Notes: generated from the letters alone by a model not told the origin. 64,000 bases of DNA from an uncultured delta proteobacterium (GCA_963850305.1 CAWKKR010000008.1:96001-160000); one strand, 5' to 3'; positions 21,559 to 45,673 are shown, counted from the first letter of the stretch. Numbers and translations: made by a program.

Positions 21559-23304
21559 TCAGGGCGGCGACAGGGTCGCGCCCCGCTCCGTTGCGAGAGC
21601 CTCGAAGCGGGCGCTGGCCTCCGCGTAGGCGACCGGTCGCCCCTGGGCCCGACCGACGACGGCGGCGAGGTATTGAGCACGCATCGAATAAGGAGCTTCC
21701 GTAGCGTAGCGTATCACATCCGCCTCGAGCTCCGCAGCTCTCGGATCGGTAGAAAGATGGGCGACGCGAGCCGCGTCGTCGGTCCCGCGGAGGACATGAT
21801 AAGCGTGTCGCTCGATGTAAGCGCGCGTGCGCTCCTCCCGGTGGACGAGGATCAGCGCGCGGTCGTCCATGTAGACGAGAGCCCAGTCGGGATTGCGGAC
21901 GACCCAGGGCATCTTCGTACAAGCGAGCTGCGAGCACTCGAGCACCACCGTCGTGAACCCGAAGCGCGCCTTCTCGGCGCGAAACGCGTCCGGGTCGCGT
22001 CCAGCGCGCACGGTTTCTTCGAAGTGAGCCGACGAGTACGCCGTGTCGTTTCTTCCGTCGATGATGACCTTCTGCGCGGGCCCGAGCGCATAGAGGAGAT
22101 AGCCCCCGAAGTTGAAGCTGTTCCAGATCCGTCCGGGGGCGGGGAACCTCGCGAGGAAGCGGCTTGCCTGGATCGGCAATCGCCACCACATCCATCCGAG
22201 ACCCACCGCGGAGGGCGGCAGTTGCGCGTACTGGCTTGCGATGACGGCGACCGCGGCGACGCTTGCCGCGACGCGAGCAACCGCGGGCCGCACGCGTCCT
22301 CCGGCGCGCGTGGTCACCCACGGGGTCACTGCGCCGAGCGACTCGGCCACGACGACGGCGAGCGCCGCGGCCGCGAACGGCACGAGCCGCACCGAGTGCA
22401 CGGCGAGACCCACGGCCGCGAACGCCACGCATTCGAACGTGCCCAGACGTCGACGCAGGAGCGCACCGGCCATGGCCGCGATGACGAGCGCACCGAACGG
22501 CGGATCGACGACGAAGGGAAAGCGCGGCTCCATGGAGGCCCACTCGGGAAACTCCGCACGGAACGTGGCCCGCGTGGTGACATCGAAGACCGACGTGAGT
22601 GCGTGGAGCCCCGCGGGGTTCATGCACACGCCGACGAGCGAAACCAAGACGGCCCACGCGAGCGCGCGCGACCGCGATGGGTCCTGTCGCGACGCGCCGA
22701 TGCACGCGGCCGCGATGACCCCGACGCCGAGCAGGCCGGCGCGATGGCAATTTCCCCAGACGGCGAAGAGAACGAACCACGTCACGAGCGACGTGCGTCG
22801 ACCGCGAGCTTCGCGGCGAAGGAGCCAGAGCACGAGCGCGAAACCGAGAAATGAAAACAGATCCGCCTTCGGACCGAGCCGGAATCGGACTGCCGCGCCC
22901 CATAGCCCGAGGACGAGCGTCGAAACGACGTGCATCGTCGAAGGCGAGACCTCCCCGACGGCGGCACGGACGCTCTCCCGACATGCGAACAGGATGACGA
23001 CGCCGACGGACAGCGTCAGCACGGCGGTCACCAGTTCGAGCCCGTACGGACCCCCGAGGCGGTCGCCCGCGAAGAACGCGAGCCCTGGGAGCCAGTCCGA
23101 ATAAATCCAGTGACCCGTGGAGGCGTAGGAGAACGGATCGGTCGAGGGCAGCGCGCGGTGCTCCCAGATCCACCTGCCGCCGCGGATGTGCCAGAACACG
23201 TCCGGGTCGAGGATCTTTTGGAAAGTCGACAGCACGATCGCGATGAGGACGAACGCCTCGGCGACGTACGCGCGCGCCCGGGAGAGCGAGGATCCGACGG
23301 TCAT
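21559..23304 (-). CDS. Polytopic membrane protein, GT-C-like putative glycosyltransferase
   Basis: TM1 followed by DPDVFWH...DPFS, many TM helices, WGNCH, EW, soluble C-domain FNFGGYL...IDGRND. Confidence 0.6.
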   Translation of the reverse strand: MTVGSSLSRARAYVAEAFVLIAIVLSTFQKILDPDVFWHIRGGRWIWEHRALPSTDPFSYASTGHWIYSDWLPGLAFFAGDRLGGPYGLELVTAVLTLSVGVVILFACRESVRAAVGEVSPSTMHVVSTLVLGLWGAAVRFRLGPKADLFSFLGFALVLWLLRREARGRRTSLVTWFVLFAVWGNCHRAGLLGVGVIAAACIGASRQDPSRSRALAWAVLVSLVGVCMNPAGLHALTSVFDVTTRATFRAEFPEWASMEPRFPFVVDPPFGALVIAAMAGALLRRRLGTFECVAFAAVGLAVHSVRLVPFAAAALAVVVAESLGAVTPWVTTRAGGRVRPAVARVAASVAAVAVIASQYAQLPPSAVGLGWMWWRLPIQASRFLARFPAPGRIWNSFNFGGYLLYALGPAQKVIIDGRNDTAYSSAHFEETVRAGRDPDAFRAEKARFGFTTVVLECSQLACTKMPWVVRNPDWALVYMDDRALILVHREERTRAYIERHAYHVLRGTDDAARVAHLSTDPRAAELEADVIRYATEAPYSMRAQYLAAVVGRAQGRPVAYAEASARFEALATERGATLSPP

Positions 23305-25286
23305 CGCTCCCGGATCCGACGCGAAGGACCGATCGGGCCCGTCAATGACGGCGGCAAGGGCTCACCCTGCCCTGCCGGCGCCGTGTCGAACGAGTAAACG
23401 CGCGCGAGCAGCAGGTGCCCGAGCTCCGAGCGGCTCGCGTCCGTGAGTCTCAAAGAAGCGACCCTTCCCGCATACTGTCGCACATCCCAGCTCTGTTCGA
23501 ACATGACGTCACTCGCGACGCCGCGCGTGCGAATCGCGACGGCTCCGTCGATGACGACCTCGATCGACAGCGAGTCGCTCGCGCCGCCACCAACCCACAT
23601 CCCCAGGTGTTCGCGACTGATCGGGAAAGCGGGCGATAGAGCCACGCCGACGGCTGCGTCCCCCCGAGGCGGCGCGGCGCTCGTCAGATATCTCTCACCC
23701 GGCGCTCCCCTGACCGCGAACGCATTCCCTCGAAGTCTCCACCCGACGAGGCCGGACTCGAAATCGAGCAGAACGCGCACGTTGCGTTTTGCGAGCACCT
23801 TCTTGCGCCGGAGCAGCTCCGACGGCTCGGAGGCGTAGCCGACCAGCGTGTGCACGCCGGTCCCCAGGAGCCGGTCCCCGCGAAACGCCTGATAGATCCA
23901 TCCGCGCACCGGCGCGCACTCCGAGCCGCTCAGGATCACCCACTCCGCCGAGCTCCGCGCAAGAAACGAGGGCAGATCCAGCCCGGGCATCTCGGCGATC
24001 AGTGCGTCTTGATATCCCTGGTCGTGAAACTGCTCGTCCACCTTGCCGGCCTCGATGGGGAGGAAGGGGTGGTTCGGGACCAGCACGCCGCCCGGCAGCG
24101 CGCGCACCTGGTCGATCAGCGCCCGAGCGTCTCGCCAGAGTTCGGGAGACGGAATGACGCTGGAGCTCGAATAGCGTCGCGACGCGAGCAGCACCGCGAG
24201 CGCGATGAGAGCACCCACTTCCGCGACCGCGCGGCGCGCGACGCCGCGGACCTCCGCGAGCGCTTCAGCGCCGAGCCGGAGCGCCACTGGAGGACCGAGG
24301 ATGGCCAGAGGCGAAAGGTCCGACCCCGATCCTGCGACCTTGGCGTACGGAAGGAGCGACGCCGGGATCGCGGCGCCGAACATGCCAAGCCAGAGAGCGC
24401 TCTCCGACGAGAGGCGGCGGCGAGCCGCAAGCCACGCGCCGAGACCGAGCGCAAGAGGAGCCAGCGGCGACGCGGCGCAGACGGCATGCACGTCCCAGAG
24501 GCGCGCCCACCGCACGGGTTGCCAGGCCAGGTTGCGGAGCGTCCATTCCGCAAACCATCCGTGCGTCGCGACTTGCGCAACGGCAAGCGCCGAGACGGCC
24601 AGGATGCCCATCGCGGTGGCGAGGACCGCGCCGTTTCGAAAGTGCCGGCGGGCGGCGAACACGACGAGCCAGAGGGCGAAGAAGAAATTCGTTTGCCGCG
24701 TGAACACGGCCGCGACGGCCAGGAGCGAGACCACGAGCGCGTTCACGACAGTCGGCGCGCGCGAGGCCACGCAAGCTGCCGCGACGACGAAGAACAGAGC
24801 CAGCGAATCGTTCCGCACGAGATCCCACCGTGTCTCCACGAACGGAAAGCTCGAAGCGACGACACCCGCCGAGAGCAGCGCCGGGATGAACCGCGAGAGT
24901 CCTCCGTGAACGCGGGGCGCCGGACCGACGGGTTCCACTGCGACCGCCGACGAGAGCACGGTCGCGCCGAGAAACGACGCGATGGAGAGCGCTCTGCCCG
25001 TCGCATATCCGAGCCCGAAGATGCGTCCCAGCGCCGCCAGGGCGAGCATGTGACCCGGGGGATACGGATATGGCGCAAATCCTGCGCTCGGTGCTCCGTA
25101 TATGGAGAGGTGATGGAGTAAGCGGTACGCGTGGTAGAGCGAGCCGCCCTCCATCCATTCGATGTCCATCGGGTAAGCGACACGACCGAGGAACCCGCGT
25201 CCGAGGGTCCACAACTGAGCGATGGCCAGCGCCAGCGAGAGTAGGCAGACGAGCCGGACCACGGATCGGGATTTCAGGATGGTCAA
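23301..25286 (-). CDS. GT-C (ArnT/PMT-like) membrane glycosyltransferase with C-terminal beta-sandwich
   Basis: YPMDIEWMEG after TM1, YPYPPG, RNDSL, TRQT; C-domain DFE..W...GNAF...GD..VG...SP.F...VGGG...WDV..YAG. Confidence 0.65.
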   Translation of the reverse strand: MTILKSRSVVRLVCLLSLALAIAQLWTLGRGFLGRVAYPMDIEWMEGGSLYHAYRLLHHLSIYGAPSAGFAPYPYPPGHMLALAALGRIFGLGYATGRALSIASFLGATVLSSAVAVEPVGPAPRVHGGLSRFIPALLSAGVVASSFPFVETRWDLVRNDSLALFFVVAAACVASRAPTVVNALVVSLLAVAAVFTRQTNFFFALWLVVFAARRHFRNGAVLATAMGILAVSALAVAQVATHGWFAEWTLRNLAWQPVRWARLWDVHAVCAASPLAPLALGLGAWLAARRRLSSESALWLGMFGAAIPASLLPYAKVAGSGSDLSPLAILGPPVALRLGAEALAEVRGVARRAVAEVGALIALAVLLASRRYSSSSVIPSPELWRDARALIDQVRALPGGVLVPNHPFLPIEAGKVDEQFHDQGYQDALIAEMPGLDLPSFLARSSAEWVILSGSECAPVRGWIYQAFRGDRLLGTGVHTLVGYASEPSELLRRKKVLAKRNVRVLLDFESGLVGWRLRGNAFAVRGAPGERYLTSAAPPRGDAAVGVALSPAFPISREHLGMWVGGGASDSLSIEVVIDGAVAIRTRGVASDVMFEQSWDVRQYAGRVASLRLTDASRSELGHLLLARVYSFDTAPAGQGEPLPPSLTGPIGPSRRIRER

Positions 25287-25593
25287 AATGGAGAGCGCAA
25301 TATCCCGCCGCTTCCGCTAAAGGTCACGCACTTGGCCACTCGCTGTAACTCGGGTGTTTCCGAACCGCGGTTGACTCACGTCGCGCTTTTTGGTCATCGA
25401 AACGTAAAAAAATTTCGCGTGAGTGTCGATAGTGTTGAAGCTCCGCCCCGAAAGCGACGAATACGTCACACACGCTCGTGTTCGAAGATGCTCACAGCTT
25501 TCGTCTTTCTGGGATGACTCGCGGGATGCGATCGTCCGCGGACTGAGGTAAGCGGGTCCGGCGTTTCAAGAAACCTGACGGTCTGGACTTCCC

Positions 25594-26073
25594 ATGAGAC
25601 TCACTCTCGAAGGCGCGGCGCACGTCCTTTTACCCCGGGTCACGGCCGGCCGCGCGCTCGCCCATTCGGAATGGCTGACGCTCGTTCAGGTGGCGGAAAT
25701 ATTGTCGACCGGCGCGCCGCACGACGTGCGACCGGAGCAGGTCGCCGACAATGTGGAGGCGTTCCTGGCCGCGGGACGGTCTCGCCGCGCCTGGCGGGTC
25801 CGCGTCCTCCTCACGCTCATCGAATTTGCGCCAATGGCGACGGAGAGGCGCCGCTTCGGTGACCTGTCTCCGGAGGAGCGCCGAGTGCTGATCGAACGGA
25901 AATGGATCGGGGGGCGCGGTATCTGGCGAGTCTGTTCCAAGGTGAAAAATCTGGTCGTCCTGGGCGCGTACGGCGACCGCCGAGCGGCGGCGAAGACGGG
26001 CTACGTGCCTGTTCCCTTGCGCCCGCGGTTTCGGAATATGCGCCGGCCAGACCCGGAGAGCGACGTCGCGTGA
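25594..26073 (+). CDS. Hypothetical protein, probable small partner of the GMC oxidoreductase
   Basis: RRFGDLSPEERR..L..W, LGAYGD...GY; GTGA overlap with the GMC gene. Confidence 0.6.
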   Translation: MRLTLEGAAHVLLPRVTAGRALAHSEWLTLVQVAEILSTGAPHDVRPEQVADNVEAFLAAGRSRRAWRVRVLLTLIEFAPMATERRRFGDLSPEERRVLIERKWIGGRGIWRVCSKVKNLVVLGAYGDRRAAAKTGYVPVPLRPRFRNMRRPDPESDVA

Positions 26074-27506
26074 AGACCGAAAGCGTCGACGTTTGCATCA
26101 TCGGCTCCGGCGCCGGCGGCTCGGTCATCGCGCACGCCGCGGCGAAACGTGGCCTACGCACGCTCGTCCTCGAGCGCGGGCCGTACCTCCGCGCTGCCGA
26201 CATGACCTCGTCCGAGATCGAGATGCTGCCGCGCCTCTACAAGGACGGTGGCATGCAGCTCACCACGTCCCTGGATTTTTTCATTCTTCAAGGCTCCTGC
26301 GTCGGGGGCTCGACGGTCGTCTCGAACATGGTGCTGATGCGCGCCCCGGACGAGGTATTCGGTCGGTGGCGGAGCTTCGGCGCCGAAGGCAATCGCGATG
26401 CGTTCCACGACGCCTACGATCTGATGGAACGGACGCTCGACGCGCGCCCCGCGGACGCGAAGAGTTCATCGCGGAGCACGGAGCTGTTCGAGGAGGGAGC
26501 CCGCGCGATCGGGCTCTCGCCGAAGAAGATGCTGAAGGCGCTCGGAGCCTGCCACGGATGCGGCAACTGCAACATCGGCTGCACCTTCGACACGAAGCGG
26601 AGCGCCCTCACCACGTTCATTCGGTGGGCCGAAGACGAAGGCGCTCGGGTCCTCGCGGACACGAGCGTGGAGCGGATCCGAACCCGTCGAGGGCGCGTGG
26701 ATTACGTCGAGGCGACCACCGGACCACGTCGTGAACCGCTCCGCGTCTACGCGAGGCAAGTCGTCGTCGCTGCGGGCGCGATCGGTTCGAGCGCACTCCT
26801 GCTCGCGAGCGGCGTCCGCAAAAACGTCGGCACGCGGGTGTCCTTCAACCTGGGCGCGATGGTCGTCGCGGAGTTCGACGAGGCGTTCGACGCCTACGAC
26901 GCCGATCAGATGACGACGTACCTGAAAGGCGAAGATCATCTAATCGAGGCGACCCACAATCCCCTCGCGAGCGCGGCCCTCACCACGCCGGGGTGGCTCG
27001 AGACGCACGGGGCGCTCATGAAGCGCGCGCGCCATCTCGCGTACGCCGGCGCGATGGCGCCGTCCGAAGCCACGGGCCGCGTGGTGATGAGTCCGTGGTT
27101 CGGACACGAGGAGACGCGCTTCTCTGCCAGCGCTGGCGACATGGAGAAGCTGCGTGAGGGTCTCAGAACGATCGTACGCGTATTCTTCGGCGCGGGCGCG
27201 CGCAGAGTCCTGCTCCCGACGGAAGTGTTCACCGAACTGCGGTCCGTGGACGACTTGCCGCTCCTCGACGAGCGAATCCGGACCATGCGCGACATCCAGA
27301 GCGGCTCCTCGCATCCACAGGGCGGCAATCCCATGTCGGACGACCCGGATGTCGGGGTGGTCGACTCCGGGTTCGCTTCGCACGAAATCGATGGCTTATC
27401 CGTCTGCGACGCGAGCGTCTTTCCGGACTGCATCGGCGTGAACCCGATGAACACGGTGTTCGCTCTGGCGCACATGGGCGCCGCACGAATTCTGGCGAGC
27501 GCGTAG
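26070..27506 (+). CDS. GMC family FAD oxidoreductase
   Basis: DVCIIGSGAGG, VLERG, GSCVGGSTVV, CHGCGNCNIGC, AAGAIGS, SHPQG, DASVFP...VNP. Confidence 0.9.
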   Translation: MKTESVDVCIIGSGAGGSVIAHAAAKRGLRTLVLERGPYLRAADMTSSEIEMLPRLYKDGGMQLTTSLDFFILQGSCVGGSTVVSNMVLMRAPDEVFGRWRSFGAEGNRDAFHDAYDLMERTLDARPADAKSSSRSTELFEEGARAIGLSPKKMLKALGACHGCGNCNIGCTFDTKRSALTTFIRWAEDEGARVLADTSVERIRTRRGRVDYVEATTGPRREPLRVYARQVVVAAGAIGSSALLLASGVRKNVGTRVSFNLGAMVVAEFDEAFDAYDADQMTTYLKGEDHLIEATHNPLASAALTTPGWLETHGALMKRARHLAYAGAMAPSEATGRVVMSPWFGHEETRFSASAGDMEKLREGLRTIVRVFFGAGARRVLLPTEVFTELRSVDDLPLLDERIRTMRDIQSGSSHPQGGNPMSDDPDVGVVDSGFASHEIDGLSVCDASVFPDCIGVNPMNTVFALAHMGAARILASA

Positions 27507-27510
27507 CTGC

Positions 27511-29137
27511 ATGACGCTGGCTCCCGTCGTCCTTGCATTTCCCTCGGCGGTAGCCGAGCGTCCTGCGCGACGCATTCAGTCGCCGTATCCGTCGGCCGTG
27601 GGCCGCGTGATGCTCCGTGCGGCGCGGGCACGAGTGAGATCGTGGGACCGTGCGCTCGGCAGGATCGAGGAGGAACAGGAACGGGCACTCCGCGACATCG
27701 TCGGTCGAGGGGCAGCGACGGTGTTCGGGCGGCGCTTCGACCTCCGCGGAGCCAGGGATCACGCGGCTTTCGTCCGCCGGATCCCGGTCGGCAACTACGA
27801 CACGTTCTCGCCGTTCATCGATCGCATGCGGCAGGGGCGAGAAGAACCTGCTCGTTCCCGAGTTCGTTCGTTACTTCGGCAACTCGTCGGGCAGCTCCAA
27901 CCAGGGCAAGCCGAAGTTCTTGCCGATCACCGAACGTCAGATCGCGCATCAGCGCCACGCGGGAGCGGACATGCTGATGCGCTATCTCGCGCACGCGAAC
28001 GATGCCGAATTCTCGTCCGGGTTCACGCTCGGCCTCTTCCCGCCGACAGCGATGAAGCCCCGAGGGCCCCGTGCTCGTGACGTCGAATCCCGCGCTGATG
28101 GTGACCCGAGATGCCGGCGTTCGCTCGCCCCGCGTATCTTCCCGACGACGACATCAAGCCGGATGTCGAACTACGAAGAGAAGCTCGCGGCGATCGCCGA
28201 GCGCTACCTCGACCACGACGTGCGCGCGCTCGCCGGCACGACCTGCTGGTTCGCCGTCCTGTTCGAGAAGGTGCTCGACGCCGCTCGCGCGAGCGGACGG
28301 CGCGCAAGCCACGTCGCGCGAGATCTGGCCGAACCTGAGGGTCCTCCTCGGCGGCGGCGTGTCGGCAGAGCCGTACCTGCCGGTCATCCGCGAGACTGAT
28401 CGGGCGTGACGATCTCACGCTGGTCGACACCTACAACGCGACCGAGGGCGGCATCTACGCCACGAGCGACTTCTCGGGCGAGCGCGGGATGCTGGTGCTT
28501 CCGCACCGCGGGACGTTCTTCGAGTTCGTGCCGCTCGAAGAGCGCGGCAACCCGGCGCCTCGCGCGCGTGCCCCTGTGGGCAGTCGAAGCGCAACCGCCT
28601 CTACGCGATCGTCGTGCACGACCGTCTCGGGGCTCTACGCGTACAAGCTCGGCGACATCGTCCGCTTCCCGCAGCGTGAAGCCGCTCCGCATCGAGTTCG
28701 TCGGGCCGGCTCTCGGGTTGCCTGTCGGTGACGCAGGAGCTGACGACCCACGTCGAGATCGAGCGCGCCGTCGCGCACGCGCGTCCGCGAGACAGGCTGC
28801 CCGACCGTCGACTTCGGCGCCGCGCGCCGACGTCGGCGTCGACGGCGAGGCCAGGTCTCGCTACATGCTCTTCGTCGAGTTCGACGAGGGCGGCGCGCCT
28901 TCGAACCTCGACGCCTTCGCCGCTGCGTTCGACGAGGGCATGTGCACGCAGAACCGCGTCTACCGCGAGCACCGCGCAGGCGACGTCGCCATCCTGGCGC
29001 CGCGCGTGGTCGCGCTCGCGCCGGCGGCGCACGGCGGTTCCTCGAAGACGTCACGCGCGGCAACGTGCAGGGGAAGTTCCCGCGCATCATCGACGACCGC
29101 GCCGAAGACGCGCTCCTTGCGTTTCGTGCGGGCCTGA
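27511..29137 (+). CDS. GH3 (auxin-responsive) family acyl-acid amido synthetase, multiple frameshifts
   Basis: Fragments across frames: NSSGSSNQGKPKFLPIT, EIWPNL..LLGGGV..EPY, DTYNATEGGIYA, FFEFVP, TTVSGLYAYKLGDIVRF, QGKFPRI. Confidence 0.85.
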
Positions 29138-29156
29138 TTCGAAGAAGGAAGTCGAC

Positions 29157-30457
29157 ATGAAGCAAACTCGGAGTCGTCATCGTCGGAGTCAACGGAGCGG
29201 TCGCGTCGACGCTCATCGCCGGCGTCGAGCTGATGGAGCGCGGGCTCGTCGCCGCGCATCGGCATGGTCACCGAGAGGACCGGCACGCGCGCATCGCCGA
29301 GTCGATCACCGAGCTCCTCGACTTCGCCCCGCTCGAGAGACCTGGTCTTCGGCGGGCTGGGACCTGCAGTTCGCGAACGTGTACGAGGGCGCGCTGCACC
29401 ACAAGGTGCTCCCCCGAGCACGTGCTCGCGTCCGTGCCGGCGACAAGCTCGAGGCGATCACGCCGTGGCCGGCGCGTCTTCTCTCGTGCGTACGCGAGAA
29501 GTCACCGGTCGACAAGAACGTGGTCCGCGCCGAGCGCCATCCGCGAGGAGATCGCCATCCTCGAGCGCAACATCGAGGACTTCAAGAAGGCGAACAACCT
29601 CGACCGCGTGGTGATGGTGAACCTCGCGTCGACCGAGCGCTTCCTCGACGAGCAGCCCGTGCACGCGCAGCCTGCGCGCGTTCGAGGCAGGGCTCGACGC
29701 GCAACGACCCGGCCATCACGCCGGCGATGCGTTACTTCTACGCCGCCAACAAGCTCGGCATCCCGTACTGCAACTTCACGCCGAGCCTGACGAACGTCCC
29801 GGCGCTCGCCGAGCCAGGCCGAGAAGACGCGGCAACCCGTTCGCGGGCATGGACGGCAAGACGGGCCAGACGCTGCTCAAGACGGCGCTGGCGCTCGATG
29901 TTCCGCGTCGCGCCGCCTGCACATCGAGGGCTGGTACTCGACGAACTTCCTCGGCAACAACGACGGGCTCGTGCTCGACGCACCCGGCTCGAACAAGACC
30001 AAGGTGCTGTCGAAGGCGTGCGGTCCTCGACTCGATCGTCGGCTACCACGTGCGAGAACCACCAGGTTCACATCCACTACTACAAGCCCCGCGGCGACTC
30101 GAAAGAGGCCTGGGACAACATCGACATCGTCGGCTTTGCCGGCGTGCCGATGCAGATCAAGGTCAACTTCCTCTGCCAGGACTCGGCGCTCGCGGCGCCG
30201 CTCGTCCTCGATCTCGTGCGGCTCCTCGACGTGGCCAAGCGCGCCGGCGAGAGCGGCATCCAGCGCCAGCTCTCGATCTTCTTCAAGTCGCCGTACGCGG
30301 CGCCGAAGGCGAGACGCCCGTGCACGATCTCTTCAAGCAGGAGAAGCTGCTCCTCGACTGGGCGAAGGCACAGCGCGCGAAGGCAGCGTCCGAACGGTCA
30401 CAGGCCGGCGCCGGAGATCGTCGGTGTCGGCAGGCGAACGCCGAGCGCACGCCGTGG
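29157..30457 (+). CDS. ino1: Inositol-3-phosphate synthase (myo-inositol-1-phosphate synthase), multiple frameshifts
   Basis: Purine-rich RBS; LGVVIVGVNGAVASTL, NLASTE, NFTPS, DGKTGQTLLKT, WYSTNFLGNNDG, YYKPRGDSKEAWD, DSALAAPLVLDL, FFKSP. Confidence 0.92.
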
Positions 30458-31833
30458 ACGCCGATCGCGCTCTTCGGCGGCACGCCGATCTCTCGAACGC
30501 GGCGCGCATCGAGGTCTGGCCGATCGTCGAGCGACGAGGAGCGGCGCGCCGTCGATCGCGTGCTCGATCGCGGCATCCTGTCGGGCGCGTACGCGCCGGA
30601 GGCGACGGCGCTCGAGCGAGGAGTTCGCGCAGTTCGTCGGCGCGCAGCACTGCCCTGCTGACGCACTGCGGGACCAGCGCGCTCCATGCTCGCGCTCGCG
30701 GCGGCGGGCGTCCGCGCGGGCGACGAGGTCATCGTCCCCGCGTACAGCTTCGTGGCGACGCCGCTCGCGGCGCTGCAGGCGGGCGCCATCCCGGTGTTCG
30801 CCGACGTGGACGCCGCAGACCGGCTGCCTCGATCCCGCGTCGGCCAGCCGCGGCGATGACGTCGCGGACGCGCGCGATCATGCCCGTGCACATCCACGGC
30901 GCGGCGGCGGACATGCGCGCCCTCCTCGACGCTCGCGCGCCGAGCGCGGCCTCGCGCCTCGTCGAGGACGCCGCGCAGGCGCACGGCGCGACGTTCGACG
31001 GGCAAGCCGGTCGGCGCGCTCGGCGCCGCCGGCGGCTTCTCGCTGCAATCGAGCAAGAACCTCGTCGCCGGCGAGGGCGGCGTCTTCGTCACGAACGACG
31101 ACGCGCTCGCCGAAGACGGCCAACGCCGTGCGCAACTTCGGCCAGGACGTCGCGCTCGCCGATGCGGCGCGCTACGACACGGAGCGGCCCCTCGACGGCG
31201 ACACGCGGCGCTCGAGTCGCAGCGCCTCGGCTCGATGTACCGCGGCAACGAGATGATGGCCGCCTTCGCGCGCGCGCAGCTCGCCCGGCTGCCGGACGCA
31301 CCGCGCGCTGCCAGAGCGAACGCCGAGCGGCTCTCGCACGCTGCTTCGCGAGCTCCCGGGCGTGTACGTCGCCCGCGGGCCCGTACCAGGGCCGCACCTC
31401 GGTGCATCACAAGTTCCGCGTGCACCTCGATCCGGTCGAAGGCGGGAGTCGACCTGCCGCCCGCGCCTGCGCGACGCGACTCATCGCGGCGCTGCGCGCC
31501 GAGGGGCTCGAGGTCGTGCTCTGGCAGTCGTCGCCCCTGCCCGCGCAGACCATCTTCCAGAAGCGCGACGTCTCCGGTGGGCTTCCCGCGAGCGCTCGGA
31601 CGCGGGAACTGACCTGGCCACGAACTACGACCCGGCGTCGCTACCCGCGCACGCGGGCGCTGCTCGACGGCTCGCTCGTTGCTTTTCTCCCAGTCGTGCC
31701 CGCTCATCGCGCAGCGCGAAGAGGTGGTCGATCGCTACGCCGAGGCCTTCGCGCGCGTCTGGGAGGGTCGCGTGCGCTGGAGGGCTACGCCCGCAACATG
31801 CTTCACCTGGAGCGACACCGGAGTGGTCCATGA
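30454..31833 (+). CDS. DegT/DnrJ/EryC1/StrS PLP aminotransferase, BtrR/StsC/RifK-like subgroup, multiple frameshifts
   Basis: [73 protein letters not shown]. Confidence 0.88.
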
Positions 31834-32807
31834 ACCTGGAAGCGACCGCCCATCCGCGGTCACGGTCCCGTGTCGCTCGCCTTGCACGAATCTTCGCCGC
31901 TCACCTCCGGCTTTGCTCTCGCGGCCTGGCTGGTGCACGGCGTCGGCGCCGCGCGCGTACTCGAAATCCTCCACGCGGCCTGGCACGAGCTGCCGCTGGT
32001 CGTCTGGCGCTGGAGACGGCCTTCGCGAGCTGCGACGCGCTCGCGCTCTGGGTCCTGCTCGGTCGCCCGGCGAGCCCTATTGGCGCTCTCGATTTGGATT
32101 CGTGCAACGGCCATCGCGTACGCGATCGAGCATTCTCTTGCCTGCCGGCAAGCTCGCGGGCGAGGCCGCGCGCGCCGCCGTGCTGTCCGGCCCCGCCGGC
32201 GCGCGAAACGCGGTCCTGGCGTGCTCGCGTCTCCAGGTCTGCGGACTGCTGGCGAACGCCGTCGTCAGCGTGGCGTGCATCGGTGTCGTCGGGAACCTGG
32301 GGCGCGGCGTGCTCCGCCTCGCGCTCGTCGGCAACGCCGTCGCCTGCTGTCTGCTTGCTGCCGTCGTGTCGGGACTCCTGCGCAGCAAATGGCTTGCCTC
32401 GCGCTTCGGCGGCCGGTTCTCGGCTCGGGAGAGCCCCACGCTGTTCAGTCGCTCGAGACTCCTTGGAGCGGGGGTCGTCTGCAGCTCTCGGGCGGGCAGC
32501 GCAGACGGCCGAATACGGCGTCATCCTGCTCGCCGTCGGCGGCGTGCTGACACCCGTTTCCGCCCTCGTCGTGCAGGGGATTCATCTCGTCGGCGCCGCG
32601 ATCGGGGACTTCATCCCGGGGCAGCTGGGTGCCGTGGAGGGCGCGTACCGCGCGTTCGCGAGTACTCTCGGCTTCGGTGCGGATCCGGCACGTGCGCTGT
32701 CGATCGCGCTCGTCGCGCGCATCGCGCAGATCGGTCTCGCCACGCTCTGTCTATCGGCCTACGCCCTGTCTCTCTACCCCCGCTCGCACGCCGCGGAGGT
32801 TCCGTGA
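31830..32807 (+). CDS. Lysylphosphatidylglycerol-synthase TM/flippase-like (UPF0104) membrane protein, frameshifted
   Basis: ATGA overlap with the aminotransferase stop; LPAGKLAGEAARA, FIPGQLGAVEGAY, ALVARIAQ. Confidence 0.7.
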   Translation: MNLEATAHPRSRSRVARLARIFAAHLRLCSRGLAGARRRRRARTRNPPRGLARAAAGRLALETAFASCDALALWVLLGRPASPIGALDLDSCNGHRVRDRAFSCLPASSRARPRAPPCCPAPPARETRSWRARVSRSADCWRTPSSAWRASVSSGTWGAACSASRSSATPSPAVCLLPSCRDSCAANGLPRASAAGSRLGRAPRCSVARDSLERGSSAALGRAAQTAEYGVILLAVGGVLTPVSALVVQGIHLVGAAIGDFIPGQLGAVEGAYRAFASTLGFGADPARALSIALVARIAQIGLATLCLSAYALSLYPRSHAAEVP

Positions 32808-33598
32808 AGCGGAGCCAGCATCGCGACGAAGCTCCCGTGAAGCGCCGCGCCCGACGTCGCGAGCACGTCCCGCGCGGCGAGCGTGGCCTGCCCTCCGTCA
32901 CTCTTCGATACGACGCCCCCCGCCTCGCGAACGAGGAGGGTTCCTGCAGCGACGTCCCACGGAGCAAGGCCACGCTCGAAAAACGCGTCGAACCGTCCGG
33001 CGGCGACATAGGCGAGATCCAGCGCGGCCGCTCCGAGTCGACGGATGCCGGCGACCTCGGGCATGATCCGGGCGAGCGCGGCCAGATAGCTCGCATGACC
33101 CTCGCCTCCACGATGGGGCACCCCCGTGCCGACGACGGCGCGGGAGAGCGCCTCTTCCGTGCGCACCGAGAGCCGCTCGGAGCCGAGCCAGGCGCCCCGT
33201 CCCAGCTCTGCATGAAACAGTTCGCCCTTTGCCGGATCGAAGACCGCTCCCGCGACCACCTCGCCATCGACCTCGAGCGCGATGGACACGGCGAAGTGCG
33301 GGATGCCGCGCAGAAAGTTGGTCGTGCCATCCAGGGGATCCACGATGAGCCTCGGAGCACCGGGAACACCGACTCGAAGCGCACCCTCCTCGAGGACGAG
33401 GTCGTATCCGGGAAATGCATCCCGAAGACGAGAGCTCACGATCTCTTGCGAGCGGAGATCGGCGCTCGTCACGAAATCGCTCGGGCCTTTTTCGGTGATG
33501 GAGACGTGCTCACGGTGCGCGAAGTCGCGCATGAGCGACTCCCCTCCCTCGCGGGCCGCTTGCAAGATCGCCTGGAGCCTTGTCGTGGGGACACCCAT
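32774..33598 (-). CDS. suhB: Inositol monophosphatase
   Basis: DFVTSAD, EE, IVDPLDGTTNF, RRLGAAALDLAYVAAG, PWDVAAG. Confidence 0.93.
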   Translation of the reverse strand: MGVPTTRLQAILQAAREGGESLMRDFAHREHVSITEKGPSDFVTSADLRSQEIVSSRLRDAFPGYDLVLEEGALRVGVPGAPRLIVDPLDGTTNFLRGIPHFAVSIALEVDGEVVAGAVFDPAKGELFHAELGRGAWLGSERLSVRTEEALSRAVVGTGVPHRGGEGHASYLAALARIMPEVAGIRRLGAAALDLAYVAAGRFDAFFERGLAPWDVAAGTLLVREAGGVVSKSDGGQATLAARDVLATSGAALHGSFVAMLAPLHGTSAACERG

Positions 33599-33675
33599 CT
33601 TTCTCCTTCTAGCACGGGGTTCTCGATGTCCTGGACCGATTGCCGCATGCGGTCGTTCCCGTCCATCAGCGTCCG

Positions 33676-36165
33676 ATGAACGTCACCTCGAGTCCGACGC
33701 CCATGGCGGGCATCTTCGTTCGGTTCGTGGTGCGCCACGGGCGGGCGATTCTGGATCGCCGCCATCGTTCTCGGCGCCTTCGCGACGTATCGCACCGTAA
33801 ACCTCTACGCGCATCTCCGGAGCGAGCTGGAGGAGCTGCTGCCCCGCGATGCACCGAGCGTGGTCGCCTTGAACGAGATGCGGAAGCGCAGCCCTGGCCT
33901 CGAGTTCCTCGGCGTCGTGGTCGAGACGGCCGACGCGCGGAGCTCCCGAATGCCGAGCGCTTCCTCGACGATCTCGCCGCGCGAATCCGCAAGTATCCAC
34001 CGGAGCTGGTGCGCGACGTTCGCACTAACCGCACGGCCGAGAAGGAGTTCGTCGAGCGGCATGCGCCGCTATACGTGGACCTCGACGACCTCGAGACCAT
34101 TCGCGAGCGCGTCGAGGCGCGGCGCGACTACGAGGTCTCGAAAGCCGCCGACCTGCTGCTGGACGAAAACGAGCCGCCTCCCGACGTCGACATGTCGGAC
34201 ATTCGAAAGAAATACGACGACCGGACGGAAGGAGAGCAGGGCGGACACTTCACCAGCCGAACCCTCGAAGCGACGATGCTCGCTGTCGAGACCGGAAGCT
34301 TCACGACCGGAGCCGACAAGGACCGCATCCTCCTGAACCGCGTGAAGTCCGACGTGGCACGGCTCGATCCGAGTCGCTACGGCAAGGGGCTGCGAGTCGG
34401 CTACGCCTCCGACGTCGCGATCAACGTCGAGGAACTCGACGCGCTCGAGGAAGATCTCTCGAAGTCTTCCGTCCTGGTCGTCGTTGCCGTGATGGCCGCC
34501 ATCGTCGTCTATTTCAGCTGGTGGAAGAGCATTCCGGTGCTCATTCCGCCGCTGCTCCTCGCGACCGTGTACGCGTTCGCGATCGCGTCGCTTCCACCGA
34601 TGCGCATCACGGAGCTCAACTCGAACACCGCCTTTCTCGGATCCATCATCGTCGGCAACGGCATCAACGTCGGCCTGGTGCTGCTCGCGCGGTATCGCGA
34701 GGAACGCGATGCGGGCAAAGCCGTCGAGGACGCGCTCATCATCGCCGTCTGGGGTGCGCGCGTCGGAACGCTCGCGGCCGCCGCCGCGGCTGGCGTGTCG
34801 TATGCGTCGCTCCTGGTCACGGAATTCCGCGGCTTCCGCCAGTTCGGTTACATCGGCGGCGTCGGCATGTTCGCGTCCTGGGGCACGGCGTTCGTGCTCG
34901 TTCCGCCGCTCCTCGCGTGGCTCGATCGAGACGGGCGCCCGCGCGAACGAACCGCGCGGGCGAAGGCCGTCATGCGCGGGCTCACGTGGCTGATTCGACG
35001 GGGCGCGCCGGTCATCGTCGCCGCGGCCGCGGCGCTGACGGCGCTGGCGGCCTACGAAGCGTCGAAGCTCGACGCTTCGCACCTCGAGTACGACTTCAGC
35101 AAACTGCGACGAGCCGACACGTGGAAGAACGGCGAGGGCTACTGGGGCCGGAAGATGGACGCTCTGCTCGGTCACTTCCTCACGCCCACGGTCATTCTGA
35201 GCGATTCACGCGCGCAGGCGCGGGCCATCGAGACAAAGGTCCGCGCCTCGGTCGATCACGGAGCATTGCATTCGACGGTGGCCCGCGTCGTCGGCGCGGA
35301 CGACGTCCTGCCGCCGGATCAGCCGGCGAAGATCCGGGAAGCCGCGCGGATCCGCGAAAGCGCTGACCCCGAGGATTCGAGCTCTCATACCGCCCAGGGA
35401 CCGGAACGATGTCGATCGCTTTCTCGGAGCCCGCTGATCTTGCTGCCGATCACGGTCGCGGATCTCCCGCATTCGTTCACCGAGGGACTCGTCGAACGCG
35501 ACGGGACCATCGGGCGCACGGTGCTCGTCTACCCGCGCCCCTCCAACGCGCTGTGGAAGGCGGACTCGATTCATCGTTTCGTGAGCACTCTGCGCGACAT
35601 CGCCGCGACGGACGTCGGAGACGGTTCGCGCCCTGCTCGCGTAGCGGGTTCGATCCCTCTTTCGAGCGACATCCTCGCGTCGATCGGGCGCGACGCGCCG
35701 ATCGCGAGTACCGTGTCGTTTCTCGGCGTGGTGGCGGTGGTCCTGATGCTGGTGGGCGTGCGCAAGGTTTCACTCTACGTCCTCGGATCGCTGCTGGTGG
35801 GCGTACTCTGGCTGGTCGGCGCCACGGTATTCTTCGGCATCAAGATCAATTTCGCGAACTTCATCGCGTTCCCCATCACCTTCGGGATCGGAGTCGACTA
35901 CTCAGTCAACGTCATGACGCGCTTCGTGCAAGATGGCTCGCGCGACGTCACCGGTGCGGTGCGCTCCACCGGCGGCGCGGTGGCACTCTGCTCGCTCACG
36001 ACGATCATCGGCTACTCGTCGTTGCTCCTGGCCAAGAACCGTGCGCTCTTCCTGTTCGGGCTCGTGGCGGTCATCGGGGAAATTGCCTGCCTGACCGTCG
36101 CCGTCGTCGCACTGCCGGCGCTATTGACCCTCCTGCGTGGGAGAGCCGACACTCTCGATCGGTGA
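33676..36165 (+). CDS. MMPL/RND family lipid transporter, local frameshifts
   Basis: Two TM bundles with IIVGNGINVG and ITFGIGVDYS, SLTTIIGY; large periplasmic loops. Indels near 33750, 33945 and 35360-35435. Confidence 0.9.
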   Translation: MNVTSSPTPMAGIFVRFVVRHGRAILDRRHRSRRLRDVSHRKPLRASPERAGGAAAPRCTERGRLERDAEAQPWPRVPRRRGRDGRRAELPNAERFLDDLAARIRKYPPELVRDVRTNRTAEKEFVERHAPLYVDLDDLETIRERVEARRDYEVSKAADLLLDENEPPPDVDMSDIRKKYDDRTEGEQGGHFTSRTLEATMLAVETGSFTTGADKDRILLNRVKSDVARLDPSRYGKGLRVGYASDVAINVEELDALEEDLSKSSVLVVVAVMAAIVVYFSWWKSIPVLIPPLLLATVYAFAIASLPPMRITELNSNTAFLGSIIVGNGINVGLVLLARYREERDAGKAVEDALIIAVWGARVGTLAAAAAAGVSYASLLVTEFRGFRQFGYIGGVGMFASWGTAFVLVPPLLAWLDRDGRPRERTARAKAVMRGLTWLIRRGAPVIVAAAAALTALAAYEASKLDASHLEYDFSKLRRADTWKNGEGYWGRKMDALLGHFLTPTVILSDSRAQARAIETKVRASVDHGALHSTVARVVGADDVLPPDQPAKIREAARIRESADPEDSSSHTAQGPERCRSLSRSPLILLPITVADLPHSFTEGLVERDGTIGRTVLVYPRPSNALWKADSIHRFVSTLRDIAATDVGDGSRPARVAGSIPLSSDILASIGRDAPIASTVSFLGVVAVVLMLVGVRKVSLYVLGSLLVGVLWLVGATVFFGIKINFANFIAFPITFGIGVDYSVNVMTRFVQDGSRDVTGAVRSTGGAVALCSLTTIIGYSSLLLAKNRALFLFGLVAVIGEIACLTVAVVALPALLTLLRGRADTLDR

Positions 36166-36333
36166 CCGGTCGGGCGAGCCCGAGTGCGCCGCAACCGGCC
36201 CGACTTCCAATCCAGGTTGGGGCGAATTCCGCCCTGGCTCAACTCGCGCCGGTTCGGCCTTCGGCCCAGGCCATGGTCGGTCGAACCTCGCCCACGAGTC
36301 TTTGAATCGAATCGCGTGCTAGCGTAACAGATC

Positions 36334-37044
36334 GTGAGGCAACTCTTCGTCGTCCGGTGGACGAGTCTCGCGTCCGGACTCCTGTTACTCGGGGCGTGCG
36401 GCGGAACTGGGAGCGAAAGCCTGTTCAGCAGCAGCAGGGCCTCGACTGGTGGGGGTGGAGCCCTTCCCGGCGCGGGCGGCGGCGGGACGGTTGCTGGCGG
36501 CGGGAGCGTCAGCGGCAACGCGGGTGGCGTGTCCGGCGCTGGTGGCGTGTTCGGCGCTGGCGGGCTCGCGACGGGCAGCGGAGGGGCATCCAATGGCGGT
36601 TCGGCGCCGTCCACCGGCGGCTACGGCACCGGGGGCGGAGCATCTCCCGAAGCGGGAGCGCCGCCGCCGGACGCCGGGCAAACCGGCCCTGAACCGACTC
36701 CCGGAGTCGTCGCCTGTCCCGGCATCAGTTCTGGCGAGTGCACGATCGGTAGCGGGTTCGTGCTTTACGAGTGCTGCCCGGCAGCGTCTTACTACCAGGC
36801 GGACTGCTATCCGCGGACCGGCGGCGGCTGTTACAGCGGAACCGCGGCAGTCCAGTGCGACGACTCGGCAGACTGCACCACTGGCGACATCTGCTGCGGC
36901 ACGGTGACGAACGACCTCATGGGCTCCTCGTGTGCCACGCTTTGCACCGCTGGCACCGTCCAGATTTGCCGCTCCAACGCTGAATGCGGCGGACGTTCGT
37001 GCCTGCCTCTGTCGAGTTCGTCGGCGTACAACTCGTGTCAGTGA
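36334..37044 (+). CDS. Gly-rich, Cys-rich lipoprotein
   Basis: Lipobox LGAC, Gly linker, C-terminal disulfide-rich domain (CDDSADC...CC). Confidence 0.75.
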   Translation: MRQLFVVRWTSLASGLLLLGACGGTGSESLFSSSRASTGGGGALPGAGGGGTVAGGGSVSGNAGGVSGAGGVFGAGGLATGSGGASNGGSAPSTGGYGTGGGASPEAGAPPPDAGQTGPEPTPGVVACPGISSGECTIGSGFVLYECCPAASYYQADCYPRTGGGCYSGTAAVQCDDSADCTTGDICCGTVTNDLMGSSCATLCTAGTVQICRSNAECGGRSCLPLSSSSAYNSCQ

Positions 37045-37234
37045 CGTGAAGCGCGTCCGGCGCTCACGTCTGCCCACGCAACCTGCTTGTCGCGGCTCCA
37101 CGATGTCGTCGCGCGCAGTCCGAACTCCACGGGGCCGATGTTCGTCGTGGTGTTCCAAGGGAAGGTGCCTGCCCTCTTGCGCGGCACCCGGGCGACGCCG
37201 GAGAATCCGGGCTAGTCTAATGGGGAGCAACGCC

Positions 37235-37816
37235 ATGAACAGACCGAGACCGCGCTTGCGCCGACGCTGGGCGCTATTGCCCGCGGTGCTCGCGCTCGCC
37301 GCAGGCAGCAGCGCCAGCCACCTCGCCTGGGCCAGCGCCACCACGTTCGGTCCTCACGACATCCAGACGCTGTTCTATATAGCAAAAAGCAACGGACCGG
37401 ACCGGGTCGACTACGGCATGCGCCTCGACGAGAACTGCGGCCCGGCGAAAAGGGATGCGGTGTTTCCGTATTGGCGAGAGTTCGACCATGGCCAGTCCGC
37501 TCGAGTTCATTCGCTCGGCTTCATGGCATCGATGGCGTACGGCGTCTCGGAGCAGCAGATGGTTCATCGACGACCGGACGGGAGCGATTATCAGATCCGG
37601 CTCAAACAAGTCGATCGCCCGATCTGGGTCACGACGTGGAAGAACTCCGACGGCAGCTGCACGGCGCTCGCTCGGTCGCCCATCTCGGGCGTGCGTTACG
37701 CCGAACTCCTGTCGATCTACGTCCAGCTCTCGGGGCCGATATCGGTGTCGTACGTCGACGTGAAGGGCAAAAACCTCGACACCGGGAAAGCCCTCGTCGA
37801 ACGAATCCAGCATTAG
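37235..37816 (+). CDS. DUF4833-like secreted protein
   Basis: Signal peptide; LFYIAKSN..RVDY, PYW, AYGV, YVDVKG...ERI. Confidence 0.7.
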   Translation: MNRPRPRLRRRWALLPAVLALAAGSSASHLAWASATTFGPHDIQTLFYIAKSNGPDRVDYGMRLDENCGPAKRDAVFPYWREFDHGQSARVHSLGFMASMAYGVSEQQMVHRRPDGSDYQIRLKQVDRPIWVTTWKNSDGSCTALARSPISGVRYAELLSIYVQLSGPISVSYVDVKGKNLDTGKALVERIQH

Positions 37817-37880
37817 CTTCGAACTTCGACGACGTCCCTGAGCTTCGCGACGGTGTCGCCTCACTCGTCGAGACGCCGAT

Positions 37881-38192
37881 TCAGGGACGCGTCAGAACGT
37901 CCGCCACCGCGAAGGACAGCATGAGGACCACGAATAGCAGGCCGGAGAGGATGGCGAGCCGGCTACTCGGCGGCTCTTCGACGAGGCCCATGAAAAAGAG
38001 ACCGACCAGGCTCGCCTTGATGATCGCGATGAGGATCGCCGCCGGCATCTCGAGCGCGCCCAGGTGACGGTACGATAGTGCGAAGCTGAGCGAGGTCAGG
38101 ACGACGAGCGCGACGAACGTCAACGTATACGTGCGCGCCGTCAGCCGGGACGAACGCTCTTCGGCGCCCCGCGCAGCGCCCGAAGCGGTCAC
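37881..38192 (-). CDS. Cytochrome c oxidase subunit IV
   Basis: Three TM helices, IAIIKASLVGLFFM; last gene of the operon. Confidence 0.85.
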   Translation of the reverse strand: MTASGAARGAEERSSRLTARTYTLTFVALVVLTSLSFALSYRHLGALEMPAAILIAIIKASLVGLFFMGLVEEPPSSRLAILSGLLFVVLMLSFAVADVLTRP

Positions 38193-38824
38193 GAGCCCCT
38201 CGCGAGGTAATAGAGGGGCCAGAGGAAGATCCAGACGCAGTCGACGAGGTGCCAGTAGAGCGCCGCGATCTCGAGCCCGTGAAAGCTCATCCGCCGGCGG
38301 CGCGTCTGAACCGCGACGTAGACGAGGACTCCCATCCCGACCATGACGTGGATGGCGTGCAAACCAGTCATGCCGAAATACAGGGTGAAGAAGACGGCAC
38401 TGCCGGCGGGAGCATCGGCAAAATACGCGCCGTGTCCGCCGGGGAAGATGCCCTCGGAAAAGTGCGCGACGTACTCGTGGGACTTGATGAGCAAGAAGCC
38501 GAGCCCGATGACGGCGCCCGCCTCGAAGAGCTGCGCCGCCGTACGCGCGTGACCCCGCCGGAATCGGTCGACGCCCAGCGCGACGAGGAAGCTGCTGAAG
38601 ATCAGCAGGAGGGTATTGGTCGTACCGAGCACGGCGTCGTTCCTGGCGACGCCCAGCGCGAACGCGTGCGGCCACTTCGCCCGATAACAGGCGTAGAGCG
38701 TGAACAGTCCGCCGAAGAGCAACACCTCGCTCGCGAGGAAGATCCACATTCCGAATCGCGCGGCATCCGCCTGGCGATCCATCGACTCGAAGTGGGCCTC
38801 TCGTCGCGTACCGCCCTCAGCCAT
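38189..38824 (-). CDS. coxC: Cytochrome c oxidase subunit III
   Basis: GMWIFLASE, NT..LI.SS, MTGLHAIHV, YWHLVD..W. Confidence 0.95.
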   Translation of the reverse strand: MAEGGTRREAHFESMDRQADAARFGMWIFLASEVLLFGGLFTLYACYRAKWPHAFALGVARNDAVLGTTNTLLLIFSSFLVALGVDRFRRGHARTAAQLFEAGAVIGLGFLLIKSHEYVAHFSEGIFPGGHGAYFADAPAGSAVFFTLYFGMTGLHAIHVMVGMGVLVYVAVQTRRRRMSFHGLEIAALYWHLVDCVWIFLWPLYYLARGS

Positions 38825-41566: not shown

Positions 41567-41994
41567 CAGCGCCTCGTTCCTGGAGGAACGCCGGCGTCGC
41601 CCACCGTCGCTGGATCGGGAGCTTCGAGCTTGCCGTCCTGCGCGTCCCTCACCAGCCAGGCCATCGCCTGCCCGATCGGGATCGTCGCCACGCCGTGCTT
41701 TCGATCGACCCAGCCGTACCGGTCGAGGGCCGCGAGCGCACGGGCGTTGCGCGCTTCGCCGCGCGGTGCGCCGCGGATCGACGTCTGTTCGATCCCGGCG
41801 ATGGCCGGCGCCGCGGGATACCCGGGGACGTACTCCCTTCCGAGCTCGCGGCGTTCGGTCCGGAGCATCAGCACGACGGCGAGCACGCAACCGAGCGTCA
41901 CGATGACGGCTCCGATGATGACCTCGAGCACCAGACGCCCATGAAGGCCCTCGGGTTCCTGCCGGACCGGTTCCGCGGGCTCGTCGTGACTCAT
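41566..41994 (-). CDS. Single-TM protein at the ActG position
   Basis: One TM helix, YGWVDRK.G...IPI..AM; lies between actF and coxB. Confidence 0.65.
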   Translation of the reverse strand: MSHDEPAEPVRQEPEGLHGRLVLEVIIGAVIVTLGCVLAVVLMLRTERRELGREYVPGYPAAPAIAGIEQTSIRGAPRGEARNARALAALDRYGWVDRKHGVATIPIGQAMAWLVRDAQDGKLEAPDPATVGDAGVPPGTRR

Positions 41995-43768: not shown

Positions 43769-44281
43769 GGCGACCCTCCTTCCAGGTCGACCACGACGCT
43801 CCGAAGAGCCCCGAGGCGCCCCAACTCCACCTCGAGCTCGCCCAGGTCCCCGGGTCGCGCCGCCGCGTCCACCACGACGAAGAACCGGTCCACCGACGCG
43901 CGCTCGAACCCCTCCACCTCGAACGACGGATGCCATAGCCTCGGAAGGCGGCAGAACCGCAGCACGCCGAAGAACGCCGCGCCCGCCGCGAACAGGACCG
44001 TCGTCTCGAACGTGATGCCGACGTAAGCGGGAACGGCGTTCGTCGGGTGCCCGCCGACGTCGAGCGGAAAGTCCACGTTCTGTGTCCACCACAGGATCAG
44101 ATAAGCGACGCCCGCGCCGATGAGCCCGAAGAGGAGAACCCATTTCGGCAACGGAGATTTGGGCAGGGCGAGCGCCTCTTCGATGTTCCTGGCCGCGTAC
44201 GGCATGTACGCATCGAGGTTCGAATACCCTCGCGCCCTGAGCGCCGTGATCGCCCGGGCGCAGACGTCGGAAGAGTCGAAC

Positions 44282-44304
<23 letters not shown>
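43765..44304 (-). CDS. actD: Alternative complex III subunit D (DUF3341)
   Basis: [39 protein letters not shown]. Confidence 0.9.

Positions 44305-45669
<1,365 letters not shown>

Positions 45670-45673
<4 letters not shown>

Follow-up and report, generated by a model that had tools for sequence, protein, structure and literature searches.

A conserved gene cluster of uncultured myxobacteria as a candidate pathway for N-acyl aminocyclitol lipids

A 64,000-nucleotide stretch of DNA from an uncultured delta proteobacterium (GCA_963850305.1, CAWKKR010000008.1:96001-160000; hereafter the window) carries a run of genes for a GMC oxidoreductase with its partner subunit, a GH3-family amide synthetase, a myo-inositol-phosphate synthase (Ino1), a DegT-type aminotransferase and an LPG-synthase-like membrane protein (LPG), next to genes for an inositol monophosphatase (IMPase) and an MMPL-type exporter (Table 1). 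This gene set is common to many uncultured myxobacteria and represents a real conserved pathway, apparently undescribed. The original prediction had read it as a route from glucose 6-phosphate by way of inositol, inosose and inosamine to an exported N-acyl-inosamine, and all eight genes that it named were found in the claimed order by Pfam and by tblastn with clean homologues. Three findings are new, namely a different role for the GMC oxidoreductase, the swapping of amine modules among relatives and a missing dehydrogenase.

Table 1. Genes of the cluster, with positions counted from the first letter of the window
Feature	Position	Strand	Support and state
GMC partner subunit, 159 aa	25594..26073	+	intact open reading frame; no Pfam match
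GMC oxidoreductase, split form (W-type); putative alcohol oxidase for the acid partner	26070..27506	+	PF00732 + PF05199; intact open reading frame
GH3 acyl-amide synthetase	27511..29137	+	Pfam GH3 and GH3_C pieces; ~14 frameshifts
Cluster-type myo-inositol-phosphate synthase (Ino1)	29157..30454	+	PF07994/PF01658 pieces; ~17 frameshifts; 3' end approximate
Fic25-like DegT aminotransferase	30453..31833	+	PF01041; ~19 frameshifts; start approximate
LPG_synthase_TM (UPF0104/HpnL-like) membrane protein, putative flippase	31830..32807	+	weak PF03706; ~6 frameshifts
Inositol monophosphatase (IMPase)	32774..33598	-	PF00459, 203 bits; intact open reading frame
MMPL/HpnN-like putative lipid exporter	33676..36165	+	PF03176; ~5 frameshifts; start approximate

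The tight packing claimed for the run was seen in a GTGA overlap between the partner and GMC genes (26070-26073), an ATGA overlap between the DegT and LPG genes (31830-31833) and spacings of 4 nt from GMC to GH3 and 19 nt from GH3 to Ino1, while the Ino1/DegT junction is unreadable because of frameshifts. The IMPase and MMPL genes adjoin the run as claimed, but the IMPase gene is antisense, overlaps the 3' end of the LPG gene and is divergent from the MMPL gene, and therefore both lie outside the transcript of the run. The genome carries two more IMPase paralogues besides the cluster copy. The LPG_synthase_TM match is 19 bits in the window, below the Pfam cut-off, and exceeds the cut-off in one intact relative.

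Frame-intact homologues align onto the broken pieces of the window genes by tblastn. A frameshift-aware alignment to an intact relative (L122) counted about 56 frameshifts and no in-frame stops within 27.5-32.8 kb; the shifts, given by gene in Table 1 and zero in the GMC gene, are mostly single extra bases, and identity to L122 is 65% for GH3, 82% for Ino1, 68% for DegT, 45% for LPG, 62% for MMPL and 59% for GMC. Because stops are missing, the shifts are of this kind and identity is high, the frameshifts are most likely errors of a long-read consensus and not decay. With about 61 frameshifts across five genes, the window copy could also be read as a decaying pseudo-operon, or its genes as unrelated neighbours, but both the alignment and a gene order kept across 67 loci argue against this, decay of the window copy would leave the pathway in relatives untouched, and we regard this reading as scarcely credible.

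To describe the conservation, 120 relative loci were fetched and 92 were kept after dropping 28 duplicates; many of the 92 are truncated, 17 are too short or without GH3, and 75 extend 4.5 kb or more beyond GH3 on its downstream side. Genes found among the 92 were GH3 (91), Ino1 (86), DegT (78), LPG (74), IMPase (51), MMPL (50), GMC (26), an Omp85-like protein (24), MlaD (21) and an aldehyde dehydrogenase (ALDH; 12). Among the 75 long loci, LPG occurs in 71, MMPL in 49 and IMPase in 44. The original prediction had proposed a check of conserved co-occurrence, and the clustering is evidently not due to chance, because GH3, Ino1, DegT and LPG are colinear in 67 of these 75. Moreover, of 41 further metagenome loci that extend 3 kb downstream, 35 carry both Ino1 and DegT. 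The window GH3 piece matched 60 of 251 genomes of the order at E 1e-5, a few weak matches being other GH3 types. GH3 occurs in all 31 genomes of one family (f21) and was matched in 18 of 69 genomes of the window's own family, and it was not found in the three same-genus genomes searched (0/3). A phylum-wide sample gave 13 of 351 genomes, and two families beyond the order carry the cluster as well. Judged by score, the GH3 group is narrow, since two representatives exceed 800 bits and the next has 597; a FastTree tree was used as a sketch only. At one locus (L209, G160:C55) most of GH3, Ino1 and DegT is gone and ALDH, LPG, IMPase, MMPL and GMC remain, by natural deletion or misassembly. In agreement with the original prediction, a full-text literature search, with most subscription journals outside its coverage, found no characterised cluster of this combination and no description of this cluster or of an inosamine-amide lipid.

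With regard to the ligase, three GH3 nucleotide motifs (SSGS..K, YNATEG and GLY.Y.LGD), taken from PMC12493201, are nearly invariant in the GH3 proteins of 18 relatives and visible in the window pieces. The model of a relative's GH3 folds as a plant GH3 (TM ~0.68). By family chemistry the enzyme should adenylate an acid and form an amide, and one bacterial GH3, OlsH, ligates free fatty acids to an amine (PMC12493201). Separately, f21 has a second GH3 paralogue (L202, L203, L205, L206), which lies with a choline-dehydrogenase-like GMC of a third type and an unannotated protein of 230-250 aa; ALDH accompanies it in three of the four loci and P450 in two, and no amine module was seen there.

The genes beside the ligase point to the amine. 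The cluster Ino1 forms a separate group, since its C-terminal piece is 73-96% identical to sequences from 49 other genomes and at most 68% identical to the rest. For the DegT protein the best solved relative is 8GYH (E 4e-114, over the whole length), followed by SerTA and deoxy-scyllo-inosose aminotransferases; 8GYH is Fic25 and 8Y96 is SerTA, which are sugar-aminotransferase-like enzymes (PMC11726168). Its motif FSLQSSK (F-S-x-Q-x-x-K) is of the kind found in Fic25 and the deoxy-inosose aminotransferases and differs from the FSFYPTK type, and against the equivalogs of NDP-sugar aminotransferases (ArnB, WecE, PseC, DesI) it reached at best 206 bits versus a cut-off of 375. A comparable route from inositol to inosamine is known from streptidine synthesis (StrI/StsC), and the Ino1, phosphatase and DegT-family aminotransferase of the Hyg and Str routes are all present in the cluster. 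Judging from these genes, the amine is probably an aminocyclitol: the cluster Ino1 would cyclise glucose 6-phosphate, and the Fic25-like aminotransferase would convert a keto-inositol (phosphate) to an aminodeoxy-inositol.

No CDP-alcohol phosphotransferase, cytidylyltransferase or PAP2 synthase was found beside the cluster Ino1; the CDP-alcohol phosphotransferase motif, in the form that we take it to have, is absent from 23001-38000, as originally predicted, and occurs seven times elsewhere in the genome. Such genes flank the other Ino1 type. The pathway is separate from the CDP-inositol or inositol-phosphoceramide route, as had been proposed, because the second Ino1 of this genome sits with nucleotidyltransferases and that of another genome (G204) with a PAP2 protein. 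The other Ino1 gene (L215:5274-9646, G000:C1; L219) points away from two genes, one for a nucleotidyltransferase and one for a fusion of such an enzyme with a class I/II aminotransferase; this neighbourhood is kept in a same-genus genome and is possibly sphingolipid-related.

The amine genes are replaced in some relatives. Two metagenome loci, L245 and L268, carry the GH3-LPG unit without Ino1-DegT and with an unrelated module (L269 scores like L268), namely a ValA-like cyclase (4P53, presumably ValA itself; E 2e-95), a LuxS-like protein, an inositol 2-dehydrogenase (430 bits versus a cut-off of 355), an SDR and an aminotransferase of the RbmB/BtrR type (5W70, E 3e-111). The modules of the two loci are 67-77% identical and more alike than their GH3s (57%), which suggests that the module joined two GH3 lineages separately. 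As far as the genes can tell, this convergent cyclase swap is the strongest evidence for a cyclitol amine. The two stretches (L245:11518-16607; L268:9584-15491) are a candidate C7N-aminocyclitol amide pathway with one or more IolG-like dehydrogenases, in which the LuxS-like gene is unexplained. At three other loci a eukaryote-like GAD/CSAD-like decarboxylase follows GH3-LPG-MMPL (L181:15128-16669; L182:15497-16735; L189:15122-16597), and in the genomes of these loci Ino1 was not found (0/4), nor was the cluster DegT (best 234 bits). The decarboxylase loci are candidates for an amide lipid of taurine, gamma-aminobutyric acid (GABA) or beta-alanine. The system therefore looks modular, with GH3-LPG-MMPL as the constant unit and an exchangeable amine supply, because unrelated amine modules accompany GH3-LPG(-MMPL) in relatives.

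The acid partner appears to depend on the GMC oxidoreductase, of which the clusters have two forms. The W-type form of the window has 9 orthologs among the 92 loci (58-71% identity), each with a partner gene and directly upstream of GH3; the other 250 genomes sampled from the order gave none (best 398 bits). About 17 other loci have a fused GMC, 26-28% identical to the window GMC and often beside ALDH. In a genome-wide search the fused GMC scored at least 789 bits in 42 of 45 cluster genomes versus 0 of 35 others (best 701), and ALDH scored at least 748 bits in 39 of the 45, with four more partial matches, versus 0 of 35; it counts against our reading that these thresholds were set post hoc at score gaps, that the two profiles were seeded by 3 and 6 of the 45 genomes and that 23 of the 45 are from one family, so that the counts overstate independence. 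Within the window's family the fused GMC is present in 15 of 15 cluster genomes versus 0 of 22 others. All nine other W-type genomes, and likewise this one, are without orthologs of the fused GMC and ALDH (best 382 and 507 bits in the nine), that is, the W-type GMC replaces both in 10 of 10 genomes and the two arrangements are mutually exclusive. The three decarboxylase genomes retain the fused GMC (908-918 bits), and the one searched for ALDH has a 730-bit match. The GMC follows the ligase and not the inositol genes, because it is kept where Ino1 and DegT were not found and lies beside GH3 paralogues without inositol genes.

The simplest reading of GMC plus ALDH is oxidation of an alcohol to an aldehyde and then to an acid. 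The dedicated GMC oxidase and ALDH would convert the primary alcohol group of a lipid into a carboxyl group, and the W-type split GMC would carry out both oxidations alone; from these associations, the most likely role of the window GMC is to supply the acid partner from an alcohol. For a plain fatty acid, a dedicated oxidase would be superfluous. In 20 loci, the genes around the fused GMC share no substrate clue beyond ALDH (a desaturase occurs in two), no acyltransferase adding a second tail recurs among the annotated neighbour clusters, and no close solved relative of the window GMC was found. One Atlas neighbour of the GMC bears the automatic name long-chain alcohol oxidase, a family to which we otherwise assume a resemblance. 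An acid formed from a head-group alcohol on a ready-made lipid is an option that we place somewhat below an even chance, and an acid from a long-chain or omega-hydroxy alcohol, hinted at by the P450, is a tentative second; the remainder falls to other acids. At a single locus (L183:7712-15032), genes for a UDP-glucose dehydrogenase (Ugd) and a GT4 glycosyltransferase lie tightly upstream of GH3-LPG-MMPL, and Ino1, DegT and the fused GMC were not found in its genome. Ugd and GT4 in place of GMC hint at a uronic-acid glycolipid there, and it is this locus that points to the head-group option.

The original prediction had let the GMC oxidise myo-inositol to inosose and GH3 take an ordinary free fatty acid. 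The window GMC is indeed translationally coupled to the run, every W-type gene seen so far accompanies an Ino1-DegT cluster, the search for another dehydrogenase gave none, and a fold search with the W-type model ranks sugar dehydrogenases first; however, that model is of low confidence (pLDDT 61), and its matches are all at most 19% identical and name no substrate. GMC is present in just 26 of the 92 loci, and its orthologs persist in three genomes without detected Ino1 or cluster DegT. Moreover, the fused GMC pairs with an ALDH, the W-type GMC replaces both of them, and GH3 paralogues without inositol genes have ALDH and the third GMC type. Oxidation of a secondary alcohol needs no aldehyde dehydrogenase. 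We consider this part of the predicted route quite unlikely, while its dedicated path from glucose 6-phosphate to an aminocyclitol, the amide link by GH3 and the movement by LPG and MMPL stand as the likely scheme.

With the GMC assigned to the acid, the amine arm has a gap at the ketone needed for transamination, which weighs against our reading. IolG (TIGR04380) was above cut-off in 0 of 80 genomes, 45 of them with the cluster, and was rejected as the ketone source, although a divergent Hyg17-like enzyme could escape this search; among the 92 relative loci no inositol dehydrogenase recurs. Myo-2-inosose 1-phosphate is a normal intermediate of Ino1. The route that we prefer, at about even chances, is that the aminotransferase intercepts this intermediate from Ino1. 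If transamination takes place at this step and IMPase then strips the phosphate from the amino-inositol phosphate, the ketone gap would close. The alternative source of the ketone would be an unrecognised dehydrogenase acting elsewhere. A complex prediction for Ino1 and DegT scored 0.00, which counts neither for nor against the interception.

For the last steps, the LPG-synthase-like protein may flip the product or a precursor and the MMPL protein may pass it outward. The LPG-like protein resembles HpnL, far below cut-off, and the MMPL protein of a relative scored 199 bits for HpnN (cut-off 752) and 113 bits for BstA (cut-off 1400). These resemblances raise the possibility of an acid derived from the side chain of a sterol or hopanoid, with a bile-acid-like conjugate as the product, which would fit the triterpene cyclase found in 29 of 31 f21 genomes, the P450, GMC and ALDH beside GH3 paralogues and the taurine-type conjugates expected from the CSAD-like variant. 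Against it, both exporter scores are far below cut-off, and no triterpene cyclase was found in this genome (one 28-bit partial match in a 1736-aa frame) or in the cluster-bearing genera g49 (0/5) and g39 (0/4). With no cyclase in this genome and in these two genera, a triterpenoid is in general unlikely; as a general rule the sterol or hopanoid partner was rejected, and as an explanation of the cluster we hold it very improbable.

A role in place of lipid A was also considered and is not supported in general: lpxC is present in 13 of 45 cluster genomes, this one among them, versus 20 of 35 others, and it was not found in any f21 genome searched (0/23), all of which carry the GH3 cluster. Another explanation is that the product is not a membrane lipid but a small secreted aminocyclitol amide, such as a signal, surfactant or antibiotic. 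Aminocyclitol amides like hygromycin A and the nabscessins are known secondary metabolites (PMC10949010, PMC11364655), and within the window's family the cluster has a patchy distribution, with GH3 not found in the three same-genus genomes searched. On the other hand, GH3 is in every f21 genome, lipid-handling genes recur beside it (LPG_synthase_TM in 74, MMPL in 50, Omp85-like in 24 and MlaD in 21 of 92 loci), and no polyketide synthase, nonribosomal peptide synthetase or resistance gene recurs among the annotated neighbour clusters. We regard a secreted amide as unlikely.

Some neighbouring genes may be mentioned here. The Omp85-family outer-membrane protein adjoins the GH3 cluster in Polyangiaceae-type loci, e.g. 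L123:8322-9752, and in f21 (21 loci) MlaD/MCE occupies its place. In the window, two large membrane proteins without Pfam match are encoded at 21559-25286 (minus strand), divergent from the cluster; one of them, of 661 aa, resembles Myxococcota GT-C glycosyltransferases (GT87/PMT_2). HlyD-type and MFS efflux genes share one open frame at 18548-21421 (minus strand), by fusion or sequencing error. An ordinary-looking run resembling alternative complex III and cytochrome c oxidase (NrfD-like protein, cytochrome c, COX subunits) is recorded, from the open reading frame list only, at 38189-45673 (minus strand).

Gene identity, conservation, co-occurrence and module swaps are established directly, and from them we infer the reactions and the product. 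It is fairly likely that the cluster encodes a modular pathway for an N-acyl aminocyclitol amide lipid of the envelope. Besides the limits of the GMC and ALDH searches and the gap at the ketone given above, several points weigh against this conclusion. Each swap is known from one to three loci, and the W-type and decarboxylase genomes are metagenome-assembled genomes with completeness unstated. The fused GMC is absent from three cluster genomes (this one, G100 and G154), MMPL is absent from 26 and IMPase from 31 of the 75 long loci, and the catalytic motifs of the cluster Ino1 look ordinary. The cluster GH3 scored 228 bits versus a cut-off of 620 for the OlsH family (NCBIfam NF052613), OlsH itself accepts amino acids (PMC12493201), and the substrate of Fic25 is a carrier-bound open-chain ketol and not a cyclitol (PMC11726168). 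Finally, no compound or activity has been reported for the cluster.

A bolder and rather doubtful version of this scheme is a system of interchangeable head groups in Myxococcota. GMC and ALDH would oxidise a head-group alcohol of a ready-made lipid, for example C6 of a glycolipid or the CH2OH of glycerol or ceramide, and GH3 would amidate the acid with whichever amine is supplied, namely inosamine, a valiolamine-type C7N cyclitol, or taurine or GABA. In the commonest module, Ino1 would hand its normally hidden ketone to the aminotransferase with no need of a dehydrogenase. The product would be a phosphorus-free class of envelope lipid, family-wide in f21.

Aminocyclitols are known mainly as parts of antibiotics. 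If the pathway is as we propose, an aminocyclitol would serve many Myxococcota as a conserved lipid head group, and bacterial GH3 enzymes would have a second characterised job after OlsH. It also raises the enzymological question of whether the ketone intermediate can be handed over by Ino1. A ligase that forms amides with cyclitols, with amines swapped between close relatives, could be a useful biocatalyst, and its product a lipid biomarker for the group. Moreover, for taurine-amide lipids with no known ligase the cluster supplies candidate genes; one such lipid is cerilipin, for which an ATP-dependent amide transfer is described with its gene unknown (PMC12971839).

Among known systems, the hopanoid proteins HpnL and HpnN (TIGR03476, TIGR03480) likewise combine an LPG_synthase_TM-like protein and an MMPL protein in the service of a lipid, but the cluster proteins are far below their cut-offs and this genome has no detected cyclase. 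Taurine-amide lipids, the glucuronosyl-diacylglycerol taurineamide of Hyphomonas (cited in PMC3368421) and cerilipin (PMC12971839), share a lipid carboxyl amidated with a small polar amine; they come from other phyla, no link to GH3 is shown, and they are a precedent just for the decarboxylase and Ugd/GT4 variants. Fic25 and SerTA, the nearest solved relatives of the DegT protein, share non-nucleotide polyol ketone substrates, but those enzymes act on a conjugate with an amino-group carrier protein (PMC11726168), and no such carrier system recurs among the annotated cluster neighbours. The hygromycin A branch (Hyg18/Hyg25/Hyg17/Hyg8; PMC10949010) likewise uses an Ino1, a phosphatase and a PLP aminotransferase to make an inosamine that ends as an amide. 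In contrast to that branch, no Hyg17/IolG-type dehydrogenase was found in the cluster, the ligase is a GH3, genes for lipid transport flank it, and it is family-wide in Myxococcota and not an antibiotic cluster. The closest known system is OlsH, of the OlsH/OlsI ornithine-lipid pathway in Singulisphaera acidiphila (PMC12493201), in which a GH3 with the same three nucleotide motifs adenylates a lipid acid to give an amide. An OlsI-like alpha/beta-hydrolase or acyltransferase was not seen among the annotated recurring neighbour clusters, several clusters being without Pfam match. Unlike the ornithine-lipid pathway, the myxobacterial cluster probably makes its own amine, a cyclitol, and it adds a probable arm for alcohol oxidation, a putative flippase and an MMPL protein.

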